Source of the DNA: a virus
Direction: 5' to 3' (one strand)
DNA length: 18,902 nucleotides
Virus record (IMG/VR): IMGVR_UViG_3300029822_000436
Location: 1-18,902 of that record
Both the position numbers and the translations under genes were made by a program. Within the stretch, counting starts at the first letter, position 1. Every line of letters begins with the position of its first letter. The notes beneath the pieces are model-generated. The model searched no databases. It saw nothing but the letters and a program-made list of their open reading frames with translations, and had not been told where the DNA came from. Below, one piece after another: positions 493-18,902 of this stretch.

Positions 493-768
493 ATGCGTAA
501 AAAGATGACGAAAGAAGTTACAAAAACAACAATCAAAATTGCAAAGGTTCAAAATGTCGATGGACAACTAACAACGGAACAGCTTGACGACATTATCATG
601 ATTGGTAATGTTTCTGCTGAAAAAGCTCAAAAGCATGTTCATAAAGAACTTGGTACAAATGCAACAGTTTTCGGTGTTGAAGTTTCAACGGAAGTTTATG
701 AAATGGATGTTGAAGAATTTATCAAATACGCAACATTAAAGCAAGATACAAAATCTGTTTCTGAATAA
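493..768 (+). CDS. gp6: p6-like histone-like dsDNA-binding protein (replication and transcription cofactor)
   Basis: First gene of the early operon, as in phi29 transcription order. The pattern ...TKTT..IAK....VDG....EQL.....GN.....AQ...VE..TEVYE..VE.F...AT matches my recollection of phi29 p6, and the size is similar (91 vs 104 aa). Confidence 0.6.
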   Translation: MRKKMTKEVTKTTIKIAKVQNVDGQLTTEQLDDIIMIGNVSAEKAQKHVHKELGTNATVFGVEVSTEVYEMDVEEFIKYATLKQDTKSVSE

Positions 769-886: not shown

Positions 887-1435
887 ATGACAAAAAACGT
901 AAACGTAGATACACAAACTGGTGAAATCATGGAAACACAATCAAACGAGCAATTTATCGCAACGCTTGAACAATCACGTGCAAACGTAGTTTCTGAAACT
1001 GCTGAATACATGGTGTTAAAAGATGCAAACGGCAAATTTTCTCGTAAAGCAAAATATCATGCATTTTCATCAATCAAAGCAGAAAATCGTGCTGACAAAC
1101 TTTGGTTACTAAACATCTTGGAAGGCGACGAAAGTTCGGGTTACGGCTTGAAAGACAACGTAGGTAAAGAAATCGTTGTTGAAAATATCATCTTCCGTCC
1201 TTATGACCGTATTGATGAAAACACAGGTGAATTTGAATACGGTGTCTTAACTTACTTAATCACACCGGAAAAAGAAGCTTATGTTACTTCTGCCAAATCT
1301 GTCTACTTTACATTAAAACAAATCATGGAACTGTTTGGTGAGCCGGGTTCTACGGATTGGGAAAATATCACTGTAAAAGTGGGCAAGCAAAAAATGACTA
1401 ACGGTGACGCAATTAACATCAAAATGATTGGATAA
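887..1435 (+). CDS. gp5: p5-like single-stranded DNA-binding protein (longer than phi29 p5)
   Basis: It lies between the p6-like and p4 genes. The C-terminal 95 aa loosely follow the phi29 p5 pattern (I..N.I..Y...D..G...E..V.T....Y..S.K.V.....VKV). RBS AAAAGGGG is present. The assignment rests mainly on synteny. Confidence 0.5.
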   Translation: MTKNVNVDTQTGEIMETQSNEQFIATLEQSRANVVSETAEYMVLKDANGKFSRKAKYHAFSSIKAENRADKLWLLNILEGDESSGYGLKDNVGKEIVVENIIFRPYDRIDENTGEFEYGVLTYLITPEKEAYVTSAKSVYFTLKQIMELFGEPGSTDWENITVKVGKQKMTNGDAINIKMIG

Positions 1436-1447
1436 GGGGTGGCTTAT

Positions 1448-1828
1448 ATGCCTTCAACAATTCGGGGCATTTATCACAACTTAAAAGAAAGTGAATACAC
1501 GGTTTCTGATTCGGAAATCGTGTTTTTCTTTTCTTCTAAACTGTATTGTGATAAATTTCTAAAAGAGTACGAGGAACATAGAGATGTATTTTTAAATAAG
1601 ATGTATCGGTTAACAGGTGAAATTCCATTAAACATGACAACCCTTGCTGACATTACATTGTACAGAAGGATTGAAAAACGTGGATTCCGTGCATTATTAA
1701 AAGGGGTGGATATTACATGGCAAGACCTAAACGTTTACGCATTGCGAAAAATGATGTTAGTGAATACAAACGATTGGCAAAGAATACCCAAGCCAAAATT
1801 AACAGAACGTTTAAAAATTATGGAATAG
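1448..1828 (+). CDS. gp4: p4 late-transcription activator and early repressor
   Basis: MPSTIRGIYHNLKESEY..FFFSS.LY..KFL....LADIT.Y...EKRGF...LKG...TW....VYALR matches recalled phi29 p4 (MPKTQRGIYHNLKESEY..FFFSSELYLNKFL). The DNA-contacting Arg6 is conserved. I prefer the ATG at 1448 (RBS AAGGGGTGG, 1434-1442) to the GTG at 1439 in the ORF track. Confidence 0.85.
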   Translation: MPSTIRGIYHNLKESEYTVSDSEIVFFFSSKLYCDKFLKEYEEHRDVFLNKMYRLTGEIPLNMTTLADITLYRRIEKRGFRALLKGVDITWQDLNVYALRKMMLVNTNDWQRIPKPKLTERLKIME

Positions 1829-2499
1829 ATTTATCAAGTGAAATCAATGTTCCAAAATTAGAAGACTTCAAAACACGTAAAGAGTTTAACAGGTGGAAAG
1901 AAGAAGTTCGCGGTTTCACCAATCGTGCTAATACAAAATATCAATTCCAAAAGAACGAGTTCGGGGTTGTTGCAAGTAAAAGGGAAATCAATGAAGCAAA
2001 GCGAGCGACCAAACTCGCACAAAATTTAGCTAAACGTTTACAAAAAGAAACAGCTAAAAAACCGTTAATCGTTAATGGTAAAAAAGAAGGAACACTAGGT
2101 CAGCGTATGCAACAAATGGGAAAACCTAGTGTTGACGGGATACACGTTCCAAAAGATTTCGACTTTGATAAAATCCGTACACGTGAACAATTTGACTTGA
2201 AATCAGAAAGCATGAACAAACGGTCACAACCCGATTATTTGGACAAGCGACAGGTTGCCATGAAAGAAAACTATATTAAAATGTTAGCTGAAAACTATAA
2301 TTCAGACGGTGACGAATTAATAGAAGAAATTAAAAAGATAAACCCGTCCGATTTCTTTGAATTGTTTTTGATGCATGAAGAATTGCAATTTGACTTTGAA
2401 TACACAGAAGAACAAACGGAAGCAAATTTACAAAAGAAACTCTCTATCATTGAAAGTTACAAAGAGGGTAAAATAAATATGGACTTAAAGGGGTTTTGA
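1717..2499 (+). CDS. gp3: Terminal protein (primer for DNA replication)
   Basis: The N-terminus MARPKRLRIAKNDVSEYKRLAKNTQAKINRT.KNYGIDLSSEI and the C-terminus ...DLKGF are collinear with recalled phi29 TP (MARSPRIRIKDNDKAEYARLVKNTKAKIARTKKKYGVDLTAEI......SLKGF). It is 260 vs 266 aa and sits immediately upstream of the polymerase. Confidence 0.93.
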   Translation: MARPKRLRIAKNDVSEYKRLAKNTQAKINRTFKNYGIDLSSEINVPKLEDFKTRKEFNRWKEEVRGFTNRANTKYQFQKNEFGVVASKREINEAKRATKLAQNLAKRLQKETAKKPLIVNGKKEGTLGQRMQQMGKPSVDGIHVPKDFDFDKIRTREQFDLKSESMNKRSQPDYLDKRQVAMKENYIKMLAENYNSDGDELIEEIKKINPSDFFELFLMHEELQFDFEYTEEQTEANLQKKLSIIESYKEGKINMDLKGF

Positions 2500-2538: not shown

Positions 2539-4278
2539 ATGGCACGGAAAAAATTCAGTTGCGACTTTGAAACAACAACAAAAATAGATGATTGTCGTGT
2601 GTGGGCTTATGGTTATATGCAGATAGGCAAAAAGTCAAATTACAAAATAGGGAACAGTATGGACGAATTTATGGAATGGGTGGAATTGGTTAAGTCGGAT
2701 TTATATTTCCACAATCTAAAATTCGATGGTTCATTTATTGTCAATTGGTTATTAAAAAATGGTTACGAGTATTCAGAAACACCAACAGCAAAAACGTTCA
2801 AAACAACCATATCAAGTATGGGGCAATGGTACATCATTGATATATGTTACGGTTTCAAAGGCAAACAAAAACTTCATTCCGTGATATACGACAGTTTAAA
2901 AAAGCTACCGTTTCCAGTAAAAAAGATTGCAGTTGATTTTAAGTTGCCGATATTAAAAGGCGATATTGATTATCACACCGAACGACCTATTGGGCATGTT
3001 ATTACAGAAGAAGAATATCAATACATTAAAAACGATATTGAAATCATTGCCGATGCATTGGAAATTCAATTCAAACAAGGTTTAGAAAAAATGACAAATG
3101 GTTCGGATAGTTTAACCGATTTAAAAAACATTATGTCAAAGAAAATGTTCGAAAAACATTTTCCAGTTTTCAGCTTGAAAATGGATAACGAGGTTCGGCT
3201 TGCATATCGTGGAGGGTTCACGTGGTTAAACGACATACATAAAAATAAAGTTGTTAATGAAGGTATGGTATTTGACGTAAATAGTCTATACCCTTCCGTT
3301 ATGTATAATCGTTTATTACCTTATGGATTCCCGATATATTTTGAAGGTGAATATAAAGAGGATGAAAGTTATCCGTTATATATACAAAAAATACGTTGTG
3401 AATTTTATTTAAAAGAAAACAAAATACCGACAATACAGATTAAAGGCGACGACAGGTTTAAAGGAACTGAGTATTTAAAAAACAGCAAAGGTGAAACAGT
3501 CGAGTTAGTTGTATCAAATGTCGACTTGAAACTAATTCAAGATAACTATGATTTATATGATATTGAATATTTGGGCGGTTGGAAATTCAAAGGGAAATCC
3601 GGTTTGTTTAAGGATTTCATTGACAAATGGACGTATGTAAAAATCAACAATGACGGTGCTGTTAAGGCGCTTGCAAAATTAATGTTGAATGCTTTATACG
3701 GAAAGTTCGCAACAAACCCGGATATAACAGGTAAAATCCCATACTTAAAAGATGATGGTTCATTAGGTTTCAAAATGGGAGATGAAGAATTCAAAGAACC
3801 TGTCTACACGCCAATGGGTGTATTTATAACATCATACGCTCGGGAACTGACAATTAGAACTGCTCAAAGTTGTTATGATAGAATTATTTATTGTGATACA
3901 GACAGTATTCATTTAACAGGTACTAATATTCCAGATTCTATTAAACATTTAATTCATGACGATAATTTAGGAATGTGGCAACATGAAAGCACGTTCAAGC
4001 GGGCAAAGTATATCAGACAAAAAACATATATCCAAGAATTATACGAAAGACAAAACACAAAAGGCAAATGGATAGGTGCTGGCAAAACAAATTATGAACG
4101 TTTGAAAACTTCCGTCAAGTGTGCGGGTATGCCGGATAATGTCAAAAAATTAGTAACATTCGATAACTTTGAAATCGGGTTTTCCGCACCTGGAAAATTA
4201 GTTCCAAAACAAGTTGATGGTGGCGTTGTATTAGTCGACAGTATTTTTACAATCAAAGAAGGAGGTTTAATATGGTAG
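2539..4278 (+). CDS. gp2: Protein-primed family B DNA polymerase
   Basis: Exo motifs are CDFETTT, HNLKFDGSFIVNWL and YIKNDIEII. Pol motifs are FDVNSLYPS, KLMLNALYGKF and YCDTDSIH. It is collinear with phi29 DNA polymerase along its whole length (579 vs 575 aa). Confidence 0.98.
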   Translation: MARKKFSCDFETTTKIDDCRVWAYGYMQIGKKSNYKIGNSMDEFMEWVELVKSDLYFHNLKFDGSFIVNWLLKNGYEYSETPTAKTFKTTISSMGQWYIIDICYGFKGKQKLHSVIYDSLKKLPFPVKKIAVDFKLPILKGDIDYHTERPIGHVITEEEYQYIKNDIEIIADALEIQFKQGLEKMTNGSDSLTDLKNIMSKKMFEKHFPVFSLKMDNEVRLAYRGGFTWLNDIHKNKVVNEGMVFDVNSLYPSVMYNRLLPYGFPIYFEGEYKEDESYPLYIQKIRCEFYLKENKIPTIQIKGDDRFKGTEYLKNSKGETVELVVSNVDLKLIQDNYDLYDIEYLGGWKFKGKSGLFKDFIDKWTYVKINNDGAVKALAKLMLNALYGKFATNPDITGKIPYLKDDGSLGFKMGDEEFKEPVYTPMGVFITSYARELTIRTAQSCYDRIIYCDTDSIHLTGTNIPDSIKHLIHDDNLGMWQHESTFKRAKYIRQKTYIQELYERQNTKGKWIGAGKTNYERLKTSVKCAGMPDNVKKLVTFDNFEIGFSAPGKLVPKQVDGGVVLVDSIFTIKEGGLIW

Positions 4279-4451
4279 GTTGTAAAACAAAAGCGATGTT
4301 GTCAGAAGAAATTAAGTACAGTATTCTCAAAGAACTGAATCACGTTTACAATGCATGTTACAACGGGAACGAGGAACATTTGTGTGAGGGATTGGAACTT
4401 GCGATTATCACAATTACTAATTTAAAATTCGGAGGGAAAAACAATGCGTAA
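4272..4451 (+). CDS. 59-aa hypothetical early protein (position of phi29 gene 1/56 region), not in the ORF track
   Basis: RBS GGAGG (4261-4265) lies 6 nt upstream of the ATG, which overlaps the polymerase stop (ATGGTAG). Translation is MVGCKTKAMLSEEIKYSILKELNHVYNACYNGNEEHLCEGLELAIITITNLKFGGKNNA. Confidence 0.5.
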   Translation: MVGCKTKAMLSEEIKYSILKELNHVYNACYNGNEEHLCEGLELAIITITNLKFGGKNNA

Positions 4452-4620
4452 TAGGTGGTTGGTTACATTCACATGTGAAAAAGAGGATAGTACATTCTAT
4501 CAAGTAGCAAACGAGGTTGATAGTTTAGTAAAAGTTTCACGGTTGATTCTATCATTTCAACCAAAGAAAAACAGCAAACTAGTTCAAATCAACATTGATG
4601 ATATATTAACATTATTTTGA
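4444..4620 (+). CDS. 58-aa hypothetical early protein, not in the ORF track
   Basis: RBS GGAGGG (4431-4436) lies 7 nt upstream of the ATG. It overlaps the previous ORF by 8 nt. Translation is MRNRWLVTFTCEKEDSTFYQVANEVDSLVKVSRLILSFQPKKNSKLVQINIDDILTLF. Confidence 0.5.
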   Translation: MRNRWLVTFTCEKEDSTFYQVANEVDSLVKVSRLILSFQPKKNSKLVQINIDDILTLF

Positions 4621-4645
4621 CAAATACATAGGATAGTGCTATACT
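4617..4645 (+). promoter_or_regulatory. Near-consensus sigma-A promoter driving the pRNA (phi29 A1 analogue)
   Basis: TTGACA (4617-4622), a 17-nt spacer, then extended -10 TGcTATACT (4637-4645). The predicted start is about 4651-4653. Confidence 0.8.
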
Positions 4646-4651
4646 TATCTA

Positions 4652-4871
4652 TATGAGGGGTAGCACTTCCTATAACATTTAGTCTGTTGGGTTTATCCGC
4701 ATTGAGTTGCGCCAACACTTTTGGTAGGTGATTCCTATTAGTGTTACAAGTGTCTATTACTTCATACACTCAAAACCATCCAAAAGCCCAAAAGCTATAA
4801 CGGATGGTTTTACTAATTTATCCTCATAAATTTAACATATGGAATAGGGATGGTTACCCTATTCTTTTTTT
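4652..4871 (+). ncRNA. pRNA: Packaging RNA (pRNA): core domain I about 4652-4767, plus a 3' domain II ending at the terminator
   Basis: There is direct similarity to recalled phi29 pRNA. GGUAGCACUUCC matches GGUACUUCC, and UGUUGGG...CCAACA matches UGUUGGGG...CCCACA. The hairpin CGCA-UUGAGU-UGCG (4698-4711) matches phi29 CUGA-UUGAGU-UCAG, with an identical loop and covarying stem. A 5'/3' helix joins 4652-4666 to 4750-4766, and a D-like hairpin lies at 4723-4739. No convincing ORF is present. Confidence 0.85.
4842..4871 (+). terminator. Rho-independent terminator ending the early/pRNA transcripts and insulating the late operon
   Basis: Stem GAATAGGG/CCCTATTC (4842-4849 and 4857-4864), a 7-nt loop, then seven T residues (4865-4871). 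Confidence 0.85.
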
Positions 4872-4889
4872 GTGTTCAAAAACAACTAT

Positions 4890-4903
4890 GTTTCACGTGA
4901 AAC
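4890..4903. promoter_or_regulatory. Perfect 14-bp palindrome GTTTCACGTGAAAC (candidate operator)
   Basis: The sequence is exactly self-complementary and is centred about 100 bp upstream of the predicted late start. The 16-mer ATGTTTCACGTGAAAC recurs at 17495-17510. Confidence 0.4.
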
Positions 4904-4931
4904 AAAAAATAGAAAAATAACAATTTTTGTT
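4901..4931. promoter_or_regulatory. Candidate p4 activator site: AACAAAAA-15 bp-TTTTTGTT
   Basis: A perfect 8-bp inverted repeat with a 15-bp spacer and outer AAC/GTT, as in the phi29 p4 site. Its centre (4916) is about 80-82 bp upstream of the predicted late start. phi29 p4 site 3 is centred at -82 of promoter A3. Confidence 0.5.
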
Positions 4932-4982
4932 CTATTAATTTCATTTGTGAACCGGATAATGAGTGTAGGATGTTAGACTAGA

Positions 4983-4991
4983 TGGTATAAT
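4983..4991 (+). promoter_or_regulatory. Late promoter (A3 analogue): extended -10 without a recognisable -35
   Basis: TGgTATAAT at 4983-4991. The -35 position (4963-4968, GTGTAG) is poor. The predicted start is about 4996-4998, some 35 nt before the gene 7 ATG. Confidence 0.65.
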
Positions 4992-5032
4992 AAGAATGTA
5001 AGATATTATTAAAACAGGAAGGATGTTGCAAA

Positions 5033-5335
5033 ATGCCAATGAGCAAGGAAGAACATGAAGCGTTACTAAATGAGTTACTAGGAGCAGACGTAGAACAATC
5101 AAGACGTACAGAAATCTTACAACAGCTACGAACTGATTACGGTACTGTCCACGCTGATTTCGAAAACATCACAACAAACAATCAAAAGTTACAAGCGAAT
5201 AATGACGACTTGATTATTTCAAATAGTCAATTGTTCCGACAGTTGGGTGTTGTTGGTGGTAATCAAGAAATGCAAAAACAGGAAGAACAGAAAACGTTTT
5301 CCGAAACAGTAACAATTGAAGCACTTGAAAAATAA
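5033..5335 (+). CDS. gp7: Head scaffolding protein
   Basis: MPMSKEEHEALLNELL....ILQQLR..YG......DDLIISNSQLFRQLG....ETVTIEALEK is collinear with recalled phi29 p7 (MPLKPEEHEDILNKLL...ALQQLR...DDLIVSNSKLFRQIG...ETITIEDLEAK). Confidence 0.9.
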   Translation: MPMSKEEHEALLNELLGADVEQSRRTEILQQLRTDYGTVHADFENITTNNQKLQANNDDLIISNSQLFRQLGVVGGNQEMQKQEEQKTFSETVTIEALEK

Positions 5336-5359
5336 TAACCGAAATGGAGAGAAAAAATT

Positions 5360-6685
5360 ATGACACGTATTACCTTTAAAGATGTAAGTACAAGTTTAGG
5401 TGTTAATGAATCCTACGACATTGTAAATGCTATTCGAAATTCAAATCCAAACTTTGCAAACTATGTACCACTTGCAACAGCAGAAAACGTTGCAGAAGTT
5501 GGTGCGGGTATTCTTATCAATCAAACAATTCAAAATGAATTTATCACATCATTGGTTGACCGTATCGGCTTGGTTGTTATTCGCAATGTATCGTTAAACA
5601 ACCCATTGAAAAAATTCAAAAAGGGACAAATGCCATTAGGTCGTACCATTGAAGAAATTTTCACTGATATTACAAAGGGTAAAAAATACGACCCGGAAGG
5701 CGCAGAAGAAACAGTTTTCAAACGTGAAATTCCAAACGTAAAAACTTTATTCCATGAACGAAACCGACAAGACTTTTATGAACAAACAATTCAAGATGAT
5801 TCATTAAAAACCGCATTCGTTTCATGGAGGCATTTTGAATCATTCATTTCTTCTGTAATTAATGCGATTTACAACAGTGCAGAGGTTGAAGAATATGAGT
5901 ACATGAAATTACTTGTTGACAACTACTTTGCAAAAGGATTATTTACAGTCGTAAAAGTCGACAAGCCTGATACAGAAACAGCAGCACGAAACTTTGTTAA
6001 AAAATTGCGTGCAACAGCGACAAAATTAACGTTACCAACAGGCTCACGTGATTTCAACTCATTAGCAGTTCGCACACGTTCGGATGTAAACGACTTACAT
6101 TTAATCATTGATGCTGACCTGAATGCTGAAATGGATGTTGAAGTTCTAGCACGTGCGTTCAATATGAACAAAACGGATTTCATCGGAAATGTTACAGTAA
6201 TTGACGGATTTTCTAGTACAGGTCTTGAAGCGGTTTTAGTGGACAAAGAGTGGTTCATGGTTTATGACAACTTGATGAAACTTGAAACCATCCGAAATCC
6301 GAAAGGTCTTTACTGGAATTATTTCTACCACGTTTGGCAAACACTTTCAGTTTCACGTTTTGCAAATGCAGTTGCGTTCGTTTCGGGTGACATTGCCCCT
6401 GTTACACAAGTGATTGTTGACCCAACAATTTTGGCATTACGTCAAGGTCGTTCATTTACATTCACGGCATATGTTCGTGAAAATGACAATGCGGGGCGTG
6501 AAGCGGTTTGGTCGGTTGAAGGCATGAATGGAACAGTAGTTGCATCGGGAACAACAATTGATGAAGGTACGCTAACAGTTGGCGATACACAGACAGGACA
6601 ATTGATGGTAAAAGCAACCGTAACATACGGTGAGGTTGATACGGAGACGGAAGTTGTTGGAGAATCAATCGTTACCATCGTATAG
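5360..6685 (+). CDS. gp8: Major capsid protein with C-terminal Ig-like (BIG2-type) domain
   Basis: Position and size match phi29 gp8 (441 vs 448 aa). The C-terminal 90 aa ([16 protein letters not shown]...VWSVEG...TGQL.VKATV) look like a bacterial Ig-like group 2 domain, as in phi29 gp8. Confidence 0.88.
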
Positions 6686-11990: not shown

Positions 11991-13901
11991 ATGGCTAATT
12001 TAAGAAAAGCTAGAGCGCAATTAATAAGTGGTGAAAACGGTGAGAATGTTGAGGATGTGGATATTCTCACTTCTGCTGACGCTGTTTCCTTTTCAGATGG
12101 TAGAAAATTAACAGAAGTTGAAACAACAATTACTCAGCAATTGGCACAAACTGCAACGCAACCCGTAAGAAATTTAGCATATGGTGATGTTAATGTTGCC
12201 GGTAAAAACATTAGTCGTACAATCGTAACTTTTATCTCGGACGACGGCTTTATAGAAGATTACACAAAACTGAAACCCATATTTGAAGCCGAGAGAGTTC
12301 CATTTTCTCCAGCAATCGTAAGTGATTGGGTTGGAAATTCTCGTTGCATGAGCGTTTCGCAGATTAAAGAAATCGAGAATATGGGTTGTGAAATTTTAGG
12401 GCACACTAAAACTCATCCCGAACTAGGTACACTTACGGAAGCACAACTCGAAAAGGAGCTGAAAGAGTCAAAATCCGCTTTAAAATCAATGGGTTTCGAT
12501 GTGAACCACATTGTATATCCTTACGGAAGTTACAGTAATTTAGTAAAGAAAATTGCACGCAAATATTACCGATCAGGCTATTTGTTTGGCAACACAGCAC
12601 AGACTAACTCTCAACCGTATGACACTTACGCTATTAAACGAATTGCACTAGGTTCTTATTTTGACCGACCATCTTCCGAGTTTCCTGTAACCAATACTTT
12701 CAATGATTATTATAAGCCGATGGTGGACAAGGCTGTTGCCAATAAAGAATGGCTAATTATTACATTACATCCGGGGGCATCAAACGGAGAATTTACGGCA
12801 GAACAACAAGGTTATTTGACGCAAACAATCCAGTACATCAAGTCACTTAATATCCCCATCAAAAACCCGACTGACGTTCTAAACGAACTGGGTAACTTGA
12901 TTGATGTTGTGGGATATACCGAAACCAATCAAGAAATCCCTTTCAAAATAGGAGCTAACGGAAAATTAGTTTCAACAGGAATAACTCAATCGGCAACAAT
13001 AATATTGAATGCTAATGAAAGAAATGCTATGTCGAAGGAATCCGATTTCGAACCGGGATATGTTACACATGTATTGGTTTCTTCTGCTAATGCATCTGGC
13101 ACACCTAACGGCAAAGGTGGTGTATTAGTCACAAATAGAACGATTCAAGCGAAAATGGGACTTACAGGAAACTTAACTACACAGACCTTTTATGAAATTT
13201 CACCATCAACAGGTGTTAGTGGCAAGGTGTATGTAAGGACTGCATCGGCGGGTGTGGATTATCCGTGGGGGCAATGGGAGGTAATTAACGAAAATAAATC
13301 CAATAGACTGACTGATAACCAATTGCCATCAAACACCCCACCAACAGGATTTCCAACGGGTAAAACAACAAGTCAAACATTCAATTCGTCCGGCAATAAA
13401 AGTGATTTACCTAATTTATCTTCGGGGACACTTCACACTTTTAGACATGAGACTGCCGCCTATAACGATTTCGCTTACCAAGTTTTTTACGCAGTGGATG
13501 GGAATATATACACTAGAAGGCACAGCGTAGGAGGAGCTTGGGGAGGTTGGCGAAAAGTAGTTACGGCAAGTGTTGATGGTTATTTTGATAATTTGAAAAA
13601 TAAAGGCGTAGTGGTAAATGAACAAAAAACATCTGCGCCATCTACATCGTCTATCAGCGTTGCAAATAAAAGTCGGATTGTGTTAAATACCGTAACCAAT
13701 AACGTAATCAACAATTTAATTGATGGAGTAGAGGGTCAAGAAATTATTCTGTTGAATACGAGCGGGCAGTCGATTACCTTAAAGCACTTAGCAAATGCAA
13801 ATGATGGATTTATAAACCTGGAAGGAGCTACCGATTACGTTTTAAAAGAGTTTAAGCCGATTAAATTAATTAAGTTTACAAACTCTTGGTACGTATTCTG
13901 A
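11991..13901 (+). CDS. Tail fibre / receptor-binding protein carrying a CE4 (NodB) polysaccharide deacetylase domain and two knob-like C-terminal repeats
   Basis: The fibre-type N-terminus is DILTSADAVSFSDGRKLTEV. NodB motifs are FISDDG (D84, D85), HTKTH (H138, H142), VYPYGS and IITLHPG. Two repeats of the G.L......Q.FY......Y.R......W..W..V type lie at about aa 376-432 and 479-524. Confidence 0.7.
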   Translation: MANLRKARAQLISGENGENVEDVDILTSADAVSFSDGRKLTEVETTITQQLAQTATQPVRNLAYGDVNVAGKNISRTIVTFISDDGFIEDYTKLKPIFEAERVPFSPAIVSDWVGNSRCMSVSQIKEIENMGCEILGHTKTHPELGTLTEAQLEKELKESKSALKSMGFDVNHIVYPYGSYSNLVKKIARKYYRSGYLFGNTAQTNSQPYDTYAIKRIALGSYFDRPSSEFPVTNTFNDYYKPMVDKAVANKEWLIITLHPGASNGEFTAEQQGYLTQTIQYIKSLNIPIKNPTDVLNELGNLIDVVGYTETNQEIPFKIGANGKLVSTGITQSATIILNANERNAMSKESDFEPGYVTHVLVSSANASGTPNGKGGVLVTNRTIQAKMGLTGNLTTQTFYEISPSTGVSGKVYVRTASAGVDYPWGQWEVINENKSNRLTDNQLPSNTPPTGFPTGKTTSQTFNSSGNKSDLPNLSSGTLHTFRHETAAYNDFAYQVFYAVDGNIYTRRHSVGGAWGGWRKVVTASVDGYFDNLKNKGVVVNEQKTSAPSTSSISVANKSRIVLNTVTNNVINNLIDGVEGQEIILLNTSGQSITLKHLANANDGFINLEGATDYVLKEFKPIKLIKFTNSWYVF

Positions 13902-17032: not shown

Positions 17033-17730
17033 TGGAACTATCTGAAACAGGTTTGGCTTTTATCCAAGCACATGAAGGGTTAAGTTTAACATGGTATGAA
17101 TTGAATGATGGTGGCTTAACGGTTGGTTATGGACATTACGTTCCGCATGCAACAGCTAAAAAACAAGGAATTAAAAAAGGTGATAAAATTACCCGTGAAC
17201 AAGCCCGTGATTATTTGAAACAAGATATTAAACGGTTTGTAGATGGGACAAACAACCAATTGAAACATTACGGGTTTGACGTAAATCAAAACCAATTTGA
17301 TGCACTTGTATCATATGCTTTCAATCGGGGATTAGGTAACAGTAAAGCAACAAACGGGTTACGACAATTATTAAAGAACTCGAAAAGTGTGGCTGACATT
17401 GGAAAGAATCTACTTGTATATTGGGGTACGAATAAGCATTATAAAAACGGGTTATTGAACCGCAGAAATGCTGAAAAGAAATTGTTTGAATCAAATGTTT
17501 CACGTGAAACCATTATTAAAGAAAATGAGGTGGATGAATTGGAATTTTCAAGTCCAACACTAAAACAAATGTATAAAGACCGAATTGAATCACCGAATAC
17601 GATGCAACTATTAGATGCAAAAGCGGTTGAAGTATTAAAACACCAATCAAAACTAAAAAACGGAAAATTAACAGATGGCGACATGAATGCAATTGCGCTT
17701 GAACTCGCTGTTCACTATGCTAAACAGTAA
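17032..17730 (+). CDS. gp15: Endolysin: GH24 (T4-lysozyme-like) muramidase with an unassigned C-terminal domain
   Basis: GLAFIQAHEGLSL..Y....GGLTVGYGH fits the catalytic E...D...T arrangement of phage lysozymes, as do FDALVSYAFN.G and GLLNRR.AE. The last 75 aa show no LysM pattern. Confidence 0.9.
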   Translation: MELSETGLAFIQAHEGLSLTWYELNDGGLTVGYGHYVPHATAKKQGIKKGDKITREQARDYLKQDIKRFVDGTNNQLKHYGFDVNQNQFDALVSYAFNRGLGNSKATNGLRQLLKNSKSVADIGKNLLVYWGTNKHYKNGLLNRRNAEKKLFESNVSRETIIKENEVDELEFSSPTLKQMYKDRIESPNTMQLLDAKAVEVLKHQSKLKNGKLTDGDMNAIALELAVHYAKQ

Positions 17731-17743
17731 AGGATGATGGAAA

Positions 17744-18742
17744 ATGGAAAAGTCGTTGTATTATAACCCCAACAAAATGTTGTCTTATAATCGTATCTTA
17801 AATTTTATTATCGGTGCACGTGGTATTGGTAAATCATATGGGATGAAGGAATTTCCAATCAAACGATTTTTAAAATACGGTGAACAATTTATTTATGTAA
17901 GACGGTACAAAACCGAATTACGTAAAATCAGCAACTATTTTGATGATGTGAAATCGGCTTTTCCCGACCATACATTCAAGGTAAAAGGACGGCAGTTATT
18001 CATTGACGATAAATTGTTCGGTTGGGCAATTCCATTATCAGCATGGCAAAGTGAAAAATCCAATGCCTATCCGAATGTTACAACGATTGTATTTGATGAA
18101 TTTATTCGAGAAAAGGATAATAGCGGGTATCTCCCGAATGAAGTTTCCGCACTATTAAACTTGATGGATACTGTGTTTCGTGATAGAGATAATGTAAGAA
18201 CCGTTTGCTTATCCAATGCGGTGTCGGTGGTAAACCCCTATTTTCTGTACTTTAATATTCAACCGAATATCAATAAACGATTTAATGCTTATCAATCGTT
18301 GTTAGTAGAAATACCCAATTCAAAGGACTTTTCGGAACAACGTAGAAAGACACGTTTCGGTGAACTAATTGACGGTACTGAATACGGTGATATGTCATTA
18401 GACAATGAATTTACAAATGATAGTGAAGTGTTTATTGAAAAGCGTAGTAAGAATAGTAAGTATCAATTTAGTGTCGTGTACAATGGTATGACATTTGGTG
18501 TTTGGGTTGATACGAATTTGCGTGCGATGTATTTGTCGACAGACACAGACCCATCTAGTAAAAATGTTTATGCATTGACAGCGAGTGATTTGAATGAGAA
18601 AACGTTGTTGATGATTGGATGGAAAAATAACTATCATTTAAAGAAGTTGGTTAGCGCATTCAAGAATGGATTGTTGAGGTTTGATAATCAAGTGATTAGA
18701 ACGACAGCTTATGAGATGTTTAAAAAGATGAATATAAATTAG
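17744..18742 (+). CDS. gp16: DNA packaging ATPase
   Basis: It is 332 aa, the same length as phi29 gp16, and collinear with it throughout. Examples are MEKSLYYNPNKMLSYNRILNFIIGARGIGKSY (Walker A), TIVFDEF (Walker B), NEVSALLNLMDTVFR and LSNAVSVVNPYF. Confidence 0.97.
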   Translation: MEKSLYYNPNKMLSYNRILNFIIGARGIGKSYGMKEFPIKRFLKYGEQFIYVRRYKTELRKISNYFDDVKSAFPDHTFKVKGRQLFIDDKLFGWAIPLSAWQSEKSNAYPNVTTIVFDEFIREKDNSGYLPNEVSALLNLMDTVFRDRDNVRTVCLSNAVSVVNPYFLYFNIQPNINKRFNAYQSLLVEIPNSKDFSEQRRKTRFGELIDGTEYGDMSLDNEFTNDSEVFIEKRSKNSKYQFSVVYNGMTFGVWVDTNLRAMYLSTDTDPSSKNVYALTASDLNEKTLLMIGWKNNYHLKKLVSAFKNGLLRFDNQVIRTTAYEMFKKMNIN

Positions 18743-18766
18743 TCTCTCTTTTGAGAGACTTTTTTG
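18741..18766 (+). terminator. Rho-independent terminator of the late operon
   Basis: Stem AGTCTCTC/GAGAGACT (18741-18748 and 18753-18760), loop TTTT, then TTTTTGTT. It overlaps the gp16 stop codon. Confidence 0.85.
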
Positions 18767-18813
18767 TTGTTATTTGTGTGTAACATTATTGCTTGAATAA
18801 TGCAAGGATAAAT

Positions 18814-18902
18814 TGCACGAAAGTTTGTGTGGAAATGTGCTTGACAAATGGTTAAATATTGTGTTTGGGGAAATGAGGGGAAATGTGCGTGGTATATATT
18901 AC
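18814..18902. repeat. Right inverted terminal repeat (ITR-R) and origin of protein-primed replication
   Basis: Mirror image of 1-89. 18840-18902 is a perfect reverse complement of 1-63. Confidence 0.95.

Follow-up and report, generated by a model that had tools for sequence, protein, structure and literature searches.

The pRNA of phi29 (Rfam family RF00044) is 174 nt long, maps to genome positions 147-320 and ends at the U-run of its domain II (PMC11476376); its gene follows genes 2 and 1, with which it shares a strand. The 18-CCA-20 bulge of this RNA is reported to be essential for packaging (PMC3479190), and between two and five kissing pairs can potentially form in natural pRNAs (Hao and Kieft 2014, PMC4201828). 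The left early operons of phi29, Nf and GA-1 each close, at their 3' end, with the pRNA gene, which is on the strand of gene 2 and has its own promoter. The pRNA genes of Nf, M2 and B103 (genus Beecentumtrevirus) are located at the left terminus and face outward. Within a set of Bacillus podoviruses, only the pRNAs of GA-1 and Karezi lie away from the genome terminus, downstream of gene 2 and with their own promoter and terminator (PMC9965433); both are situated in the left arm on the strand opposite to the late genes and are followed by an extra early operon. In the searchable papers, no description was found of a pRNA gene between the early and the late operons, and a 2025 pRNA paper (PMC12670572) makes no statement on gene position.

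The window, i.e. the whole 18,902-bp stretch of DNA analysed here, is a complete linear phi29-like phage genome, as indicated by its gene content and terminal repeats. Positions 4617-4871 very probably (probability approximately 0.9) represent the pRNA gene of this previously unsequenced phage of the Salasmaviridae. The identification as a pRNA homologue, initially proposed in an earlier note made from the DNA letters, is supported by a match to RF00044, a phi29-type fold and covariation with shuffle controls: the RNA is a divergent new member of the pRNA family in an unreported position. Every recognisable gene of the window is carried by the plus strand:

493-768, plus strand: p6.
887-1435, plus strand: single-stranded DNA-binding protein (SSB) p5.
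1439-1828, plus strand: p4.
1717-2499, plus strand: terminal protein, p3 (Pfam Phi-29_GP3, 1.7e-87).
2539-4278, plus strand: DNA polymerase, p2 (Pfam DNA_pol_B_2).
4272-4451 and 4444-4620, plus strand: two small ORFs, the latter of 58 aa.
5033-5335, plus strand: scaffold p7.
After p7, plus strand: capsid p8, tail knob p9, connector p10 (gp10; Pfam Phage_connector, 2.5e-123), tail and lysis genes.
17744-18742, plus strand: gp16 ATPase, full-length (Pfam Podovirus_Gp16, 3.1e-171).

The genome thus has the phi29-type packaging set of gp10 connector, gp16 ATPase, terminal-protein gene and inverted terminal repeats, and the connector N-terminus (MARKRR) retains the RKR motif. The terminal inverted repeat comprises 122 nt with 90% complementarity (positions 1-122 and 18781-18902), and the terminal 26-mer is confined to the two window ends, with no internal copy. 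The DNA polymerase is 69% identical to that of M2/Nf and 67% to that of phi29; none of the isolated phages is close to the window at the DNA level, blastn of 4400-5100 against isolated phages returned no match, and the scaffold protein has no exact-protein record.

Via scaffold-protein homologues, contigs of four further metagenomic genotypes were identified (L172-175, L176, L177-178 and L181-183), in which nine independent sequencing runs or assemblies place polymerase, small ORFs, gap, scaffold and capsid on one strand. In the window, the gap between the early and late operons, estimated at about 410 bp in the earlier note, measures 412 bp (4621-5032) and extends from the 58-aa ORF to the scaffolding gene. 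The gaps of the four genotypes align with it and keep the promoter hexamers, the RNA core, the domain II hairpin and the -10 element of the late promoter. The features of the locus are the following:

4617-4622, plus strand: -35 hexamer TTGACA of the pRNA promoter (promoter scan), counterpart of phi29/Nf promoter A1.
4637-4645, plus strand: extended -10 element TGcTATACT, separated from the -35 by a 17-nt spacer (promoter scan).
4652-4768, plus strand: pRNA domain I, a three-way-junction core of about 117 nt (RF00044 match, model R1, fold).
4652-4668, plus strand: 5' strand of the A-helix, pairing with 4748-4766 over 17 bp with bulges U4753 and A4759 (RNAalifold).
4658-4669, plus strand: 5' motif GGUAGCACUUCC.
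4669-4672, plus strand: CCUA bulge 3' of ACUUCC, counterpart of the phi29 18-CCA-20 bulge (alignments).
4673-4679, plus strand: 5' strand of the C-helix, UAACAUU, pairing with 4740-4746.
4687-4690, plus strand: lower helix of the CE arm, UUGG, pairing with CCAA at 4712-4715.
4691-4697, plus strand: right-hand (CE) bulge GUUUAUC, 7 nt, positional homologue of UAUC in Nf/B103 and AACC in phi29.
4698-4711, plus strand: E hairpin CGCA[UUGAGU]UGCG, with a loop identical to that of phi29, Nf and B103.
4723-4739, plus strand: D hairpin (left-hand loop) GGUAGG[UGAUU]CCUAUU, with GAU at 4730-4732.
4772-4811, plus strand: domain II hairpin, a 10-bp stem with a nested 3-bp hairpin; the 3' strand ends in UUUU (4808-4811).
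4841-4871, plus strand: strong intrinsic terminator with 9-bp stem, 7-nt loop and T-run (stem 4841-4865).

The near-consensus promoter postulated in the earlier note (TTGACA-17-TGcTATACT) is indeed present at 4617-4645; it agrees with the consensus at 11 of 12 positions, carries the additional TG and is the best site within 4200-5400. Its -10 hexamer is invariant across all five homologues, i.e. the window and the four genotypes, as is the GAC of the -35, the slice of L177 starting inside the hexamer. The TTGACA overlaps the stop codon of the 58-aa ORF (4444-4620). The same arrangement is seen in Nf, where a 58-aa ORF lies just upstream and the -35 of A1 overlaps its end; the window ORF shows weak similarity to ORF J of Nf (E=1e-4). 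From the promoter spacing and the beginning of the A-helix, the transcription start is predicted at approximately 4652-4653.

Folded alone, the 117-nt core adopts the same minimum-energy topology as the phi29 and Nf pRNAs folded likewise. The RNA elements listed in the earlier note were all recovered at the positions given there, with two corrections of extent: the helix joining the 5' and 3' ends, with its two 1-nt bulges, spans 17 bp according to RNAalifold instead of 15, and the helix UGUUGG/CCAACA (4685-4690 with 4712-4717) is present, of which only the inner four pairs are conserved in relatives. Across the comparison, the UUGAGU loop is retained and its stem covaries, as had been claimed: relative to phi29 two pairs are exchanged in a compensatory manner (CGCA/UGCG versus CUGA/UCAG; 53:64 from GC to UA and 54:63 from CG to GC). 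A pyrimidine-rich bulge sits beside ACUUCC and differs from that of phi29 by one base (CCU(A) versus CCA). The hexamer, in the form A[C/U]UUCC, is common to all nine sequences of the alignment A3 described below, with a single C-to-U change in L177, and is departed from in three more distant members of a 14-sequence alignment.

The closest described relatives of this RNA can be compared element by element. With the Nf/M2/B103 pRNAs it shares the three-way junction, ACUUCC plus bulge, the AUUGAGUU E loop, a 7-nt CE bulge ending in AUC, and GAU in the D loop, so that the predicted kissing code is the same. Yet the Nf/B103 core is only 54.5% identical to that of the window and has a kissing potential of 4 bp versus 3 in the window, and the gene is found mid-genome on the late-gene strand in the window instead of facing outward at the left terminus. 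With phi29, it shares a match over the full length of the model and a domain II consisting of a 10-bp stem, a nested 3-bp hairpin and a U-run, whereas the cores are 50% identical, the kissing sequences (AACC/GGUU versus AUC/GAU) are cross-compatible over at most 1 bp, the window adds a strong terminator, and the genome position differs. The phi29 and Nf/B103 cores are about equally distant from each other.

The earlier note had proposed a search with the Rfam pRNA covariance model. At the gathering threshold of RF00044 (100 bits) the window gives no match; in E-value mode, RF00044 (Phage_pRNA) matches 4655-4768 over model positions 1-118 of 118 with 49.1 bits (E=5e-10 in a 501-bp search), the next best Rfam family having an E-value of about 1. 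The absence of a match at the gathering threshold is explained by the narrowness of the model, which excludes the Nf, B103 and GA-1 loci as well: phi29 and Gxv1 both score 145.4 bits, whereas the Nf locus annotated as packaging RNA reaches 47.0 bits and the corresponding B103 locus 50.2, and RF00044 does not detect the annotated pRNA of GA-1 at E<=0.001. The 100-bit threshold is a curation cut-off and not a property of the biological pRNA family, and a score below it is to be expected of a genuine pRNA outside the phi29 type. By the same cut-off, Rfam will miss most pRNAs of metagenomic phi29-like phages.

A second model, R1, was built from the nine sequences of alignment A3, namely the five RNAs of the collinear clade including that of the window, the standard-layout relative L187, Nf, B103 and phi29. 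It matches the window with 126 bits and, with filters off, only once; no second pRNA copy was found in the window. Neither RF00044 nor R1 detects the pRNAs of GA-1 and Karezi, whose sequences have diverged too far. Further members were sought by other routes. A scan of viral contigs for the degenerate motif CACTTCC..ATTGAGTT gave, among the matches listed, unrelated contig sizes, which is consistent with chance, and none of three matches tested with R1 was positive; a scaffold-protein locus search of viral contigs yielded nothing; clade-specific 20-mers were absent from viral contigs and had two matches in metagenome and genome collections (a Flavobacterium contig and one metagenome contig), neither with a pRNA according to R1.

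Applied to the five clade RNAs, RNAalifold predicted the pRNA architecture independently, i.e. the three-way junction of the A, C, CE/E and D helices, and the same junction with covariation emerged from the nine sequences. Among the five, 98.3% of cells are paired and 13 pairs are changed on both sides, a covariation reached by none of 500 shuffles and amounting to at most 4 in slid controls. The double changes are distributed over the C-helix (3), the CE helix (1), the E hairpin (2), the D hairpin (5) and domain II (2), so that every helix is backed by compensatory changes save the A-helix, which is invariant within the clade and for which support comes only from the wider alignment for this reason. 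The nine sequences share one common structure with 95.7% of cells paired and 22 of 36 pairs compensatory (matched by 0 of 500 shuffles; slid controls at most 8). There, with Nf, B103 and phi29 included, covariation is seen in 8 of 16 A-helix pairs, 5 of 7 C-helix pairs (3 of 7 within the clade), 2 of 4 pairs of the lower CE helix (where U:A becomes A:U in L176) and 3 of 4 E-stem pairs; in the D hairpin, 5 of 6 stem pairs covary already within the clade.

The loop-loop contact had been proposed as a 3-bp complementarity between AUC (4695-4697) in the CE bulge and GAU (4730-4732) in the D loop. The complementarity is present and has the Nf/B103-type code; taken in the window sequence by itself, it is not significant, as approximately 14% of shuffled loops equal it (p about 0.14). 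Three pairs are within the natural range, given that natural pRNAs have two to five. When 14 R1-aligned family members were tested for a Watson-Crick duplex between the D loop and the CE bulge, anchored at the 3'-most nucleotide of the latter, 13 had at least 3 Watson-Crick bp, the exception being L176 with a G-U at the anchor. Three codes occur, with a cross-compatibility of at most 1 bp: AUC/GAU, which Nf, B103 and Goe1 lengthen to UAUC/GAUA; ACC/GGU, which is AACC/GGUU in phi29 and also found in Harambe; and ACU/AGU in L191. Within the clade, AUC/GAU is invariant apart from a one-sided C-to-U change in L176. The predicted kissing pairing is backed by positional homology and by covariation across the family.

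Two elements may end the transcript. The domain II hairpin (fold z=-5.6) has the architecture of phi29 domain II, and two of its pairs covary among the five homologues. The earlier note had considered domain II to be longer than that of phi29; this does not hold, since hairpin and U-run mirror phi29 domain II and 4841-4871 constitutes a second, separate terminator that is not part of the domain II hairpin. The strong terminator itself, placed about 220 nt downstream of the promoter in the same note, was confirmed (stem 4841-4865 plus T-run) as the sole terminator-like site detected by a scan of 4200-5400. It is kept with paired changes in L172, L181 and L177 and absent from L176, where the domain II hairpin is the only terminator-like element ahead of the late genes. 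Because domain II is phi29-like, covarying and the only such element in L176, the primary RNA is probably about 160 nt long, with its predicted end at the domain II U-run. The 4841-4871 element would act as a second stop, giving an RNA of about 220 nt, and would also block early read-through into the late operon.

The position of the gene was described in the earlier note as a relocation of the pRNA to mid-genome. It does lie mid-genome, but it did not move alone: the whole left early block, comprising p6, p5, p4, p3, p2, the small ORFs and the pRNA, is inverted and now found on the late-gene strand. The local order is that of phi29, Nf and GA-1, with the pRNA gene at the 3' end of the early block, on the strand of gene 2 and with its own promoter and terminator; its mid-genome location results from the inversion of the whole block, pRNA gene included, in this lineage. 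Early read-through across the pRNA gene, presented as a novelty of this genome, is likewise no novelty, since genes 6-1 precede the pRNA gene on one strand in phi29 and Nf as well. The standard layout is found in close relatives (L179-180 and L184; polymerases 73-75% and capsids 85-87% identical to those of the window), and this places the inversion within a narrow group of related phages. When the p6/p7 intergenic regions of standard-layout relatives were aligned to the window, the match was confined to the core of the late promoter (-10 and leader), so that the inversion breakpoints are located only imprecisely.

Inverted left early genes on the late-gene strand are known from the isolates Harambe and BeachBum (genus Harambevirus; PMC6266182, PMC9965433). 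In contrast to the window, these phages have kept the right early operon and 16-bp terminal repeats, and their polymerase is only 57% identical to that of the window. The Harambe pRNA (NC_049960, L200) was located with R1 (33 bits) on the minus strand at 169-290; it occupies the left terminus and faces outward, although genes 6-2 are inverted. The inversion in Harambe and BeachBum was thus probably independent and left the pRNA behind. The RefSeq record of Harambe leaves the pRNA unannotated. The GA-1 and Karezi pRNAs resemble that of the window in not occupying the extreme terminus and differ from it in strand and in the extra early operon that follows.

A mid-genome pRNA gene could in principle reflect an assembly or record artefact concealing a phi29-like layout. 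The PZA record (NC_001423) displays the same order, 6-5-4-3-2-1-pRNA-7-8, and all 46 IMG/VR relatives found via the capsid protein have the standard divergent layout. The early region of the PZA RefSeq record, however, is joined in the wrong orientation, as noted by Schilling et al. 2018 (PMC6266182), and its true left terminus, the reverse complement of AAAGTAAGCCCCCACCC, is internal at 5181-5201 (L199), whereas the terminal repeats of the window are at the two ends only. As the junction from polymerase through pRNA and scaffold to capsid is moreover spanned in four other genotypes by nine independent runs or assemblies, an artefact is highly improbable.

The sequence of the locus itself admits two other readings. 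In the window (61 aa, 4584-4769), L172 and L181, the region is overlapped by minus-strand ORFs of 50-68 aa, and gene callers called those of two relatives, as though the region encoded a small protein; the ORF is, however, truncated to 33 aa in L177 and disrupted by a frameshift in L176, the substitutions are paired compensatory changes in RNA helices, and the conserved promoter and terminators are on the plus strand. The ORF was rejected as a gene for lack of conservation, and a protein-coding region is the least probable of the alternatives. The locus could also serve mainly as a transcriptional insulator or terminator module in which the pRNA-like fold is a decaying relic without packaging role: two terminator-like elements separate the operons, and a collinear genome needs insulation. 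Against such a relic, domain I is under structural selection, with compensatory changes in every varying helix and cores 69-93% identical across lineages, the promoter is near-consensus and conserved, the genome has no other pRNA, and both the connector RKR and gp16 are intact; we consider this reading very unlikely.

By homology, the RNA of the window would then function in packaging, with the connector RKR and gp16 as the partners present in the genome. Transcription, starting around 4652 from the near-consensus sigma-A-type promoter, would terminate at the domain II U-run (~160 nt) or at the terminator ending at 4871 (~220 nt). Several copies of the pRNA, as in phi29 and Nf/M2/B103, would ring the connector of the empty prohead, with AUC of the CE bulge in one copy pairing with GAU of the D loop in its neighbour and so joining the two. 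The A-helix, the presumable arm that carries the gp16 ATPase, would dock the ATPase together with the CCU(A) bulge. The motor may then package the terminal-protein-capped DNA, after which the RNA would leave the particle. In the rearranged genome, the pRNA gene and its tandem terminators presumably also mark the boundary of early and late transcription.

The locus adds a fourth well-supported pRNA type to those of phi29, Nf/M2/B103 and GA-1. Its core shares 50-55% identity with phi29 and Nf/B103, its predicted kissing code is a natural one of 3 bp, and its junction differs. Three-way junctions of pRNAs serve as scaffolds in RNA nanotechnology, and their stability varies with the junction sequence (PMC4201828, PMC5340915). 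The understanding of how pRNA works is unchanged by these results.

The late promoter of the window consists of an extended -10 element TGgTATAAT (TATAAT at 4986-4991) without a -35, like phi29 A3, and upstream of it a conserved inverted repeat, ATAGAA-N15-TTCTAT (4908-4934), is a possible p4 site. The early promoters are at approximately 385-436, 4.5 kb from the late promoter. In the p4/p6 switch of phi29, A2b and A2c are repressed and A3 is activated from a single nucleoprotein complex. With early and late promoters 4.5 kb apart, this switch must be split in the window; the collinear genome is thus a natural experiment in which the promoters governed by one p4 complex in phi29 are separated.

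At the right end (18742-18902), the right early operon is absent, as homologues of genes 17 and 16.7 are lacking; the gp16 stop at 18742 is followed by a hairpin with T-run and then by the terminal repeat. The terminal repeat is 122 nt long in the window compared with 6 nt in phi29 and 16 nt in Harambe, and could be a scar of end repair following the inversion. The contig starts with GTAATATA and may thus lack the A residues that are usual at the termini. At 155-268, a 37-aa plus-strand ORF with two CxxC pairs (MKHIFICPKCKKIHIKPKQAYYVCVDCRAFLVYRRGQ) is situated between the left terminal repeat and gene 6. In one of the collinear lineages, a gene for a 214-aa DNA methylase is inserted between the polymerase and pRNA genes (L172:4715-5359).

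Between the pRNA terminator and the late promoter lies a perfect palindrome, TGTTTCACGTGAAACA (4889-4904), which is parS-like and matches the B. subtilis Spo0J parS consensus, TGTTNCACGTGAAACA. A second copy with one mismatch is located within the lysozyme gene (17496-17511), and the number of parS-like matches in the window is reached by 0 of 200 shuffles. Phi29 has five parS sites, which are used for spore entrapment (PMC2731898); the parS-like sites point to a spore-forming Bacillus as the putative host. The only Spo0A box of the window, TGTCGAA at 13030, is located within a gene, and the surroundings of the promoters (1-500 and 4876-5032) contain none. The divergent p6/p7 promoter region of standard-layout relatives contains several TTCGACA boxes (L179:3636-4000; L184:2993-3283), and Spo0A control may have been lost along with the inversion.

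A tentative scenario, which we regard as possible though somewhat short of an even chance, is that the lineage became collinear by inversion of the early block with the pRNA, loss of the right early operon and gain of the 122-nt repeats, the pRNA and tandem terminators being co-opted as an insulator, the p4/p6 switch being split, and the Spo0A boxes being lost while parS was kept. Outside the clade, the pRNA of Gxv1 (L195, 5892-6009) equals that of phi29 in its RF00044 score of 145.4 bits, its polymerase being only 59% identical to that of the window and its genome 2.5 kb larger than that of phi29; the equal score may be a sign that the pRNA module has been exchanged or is strongly conserved.
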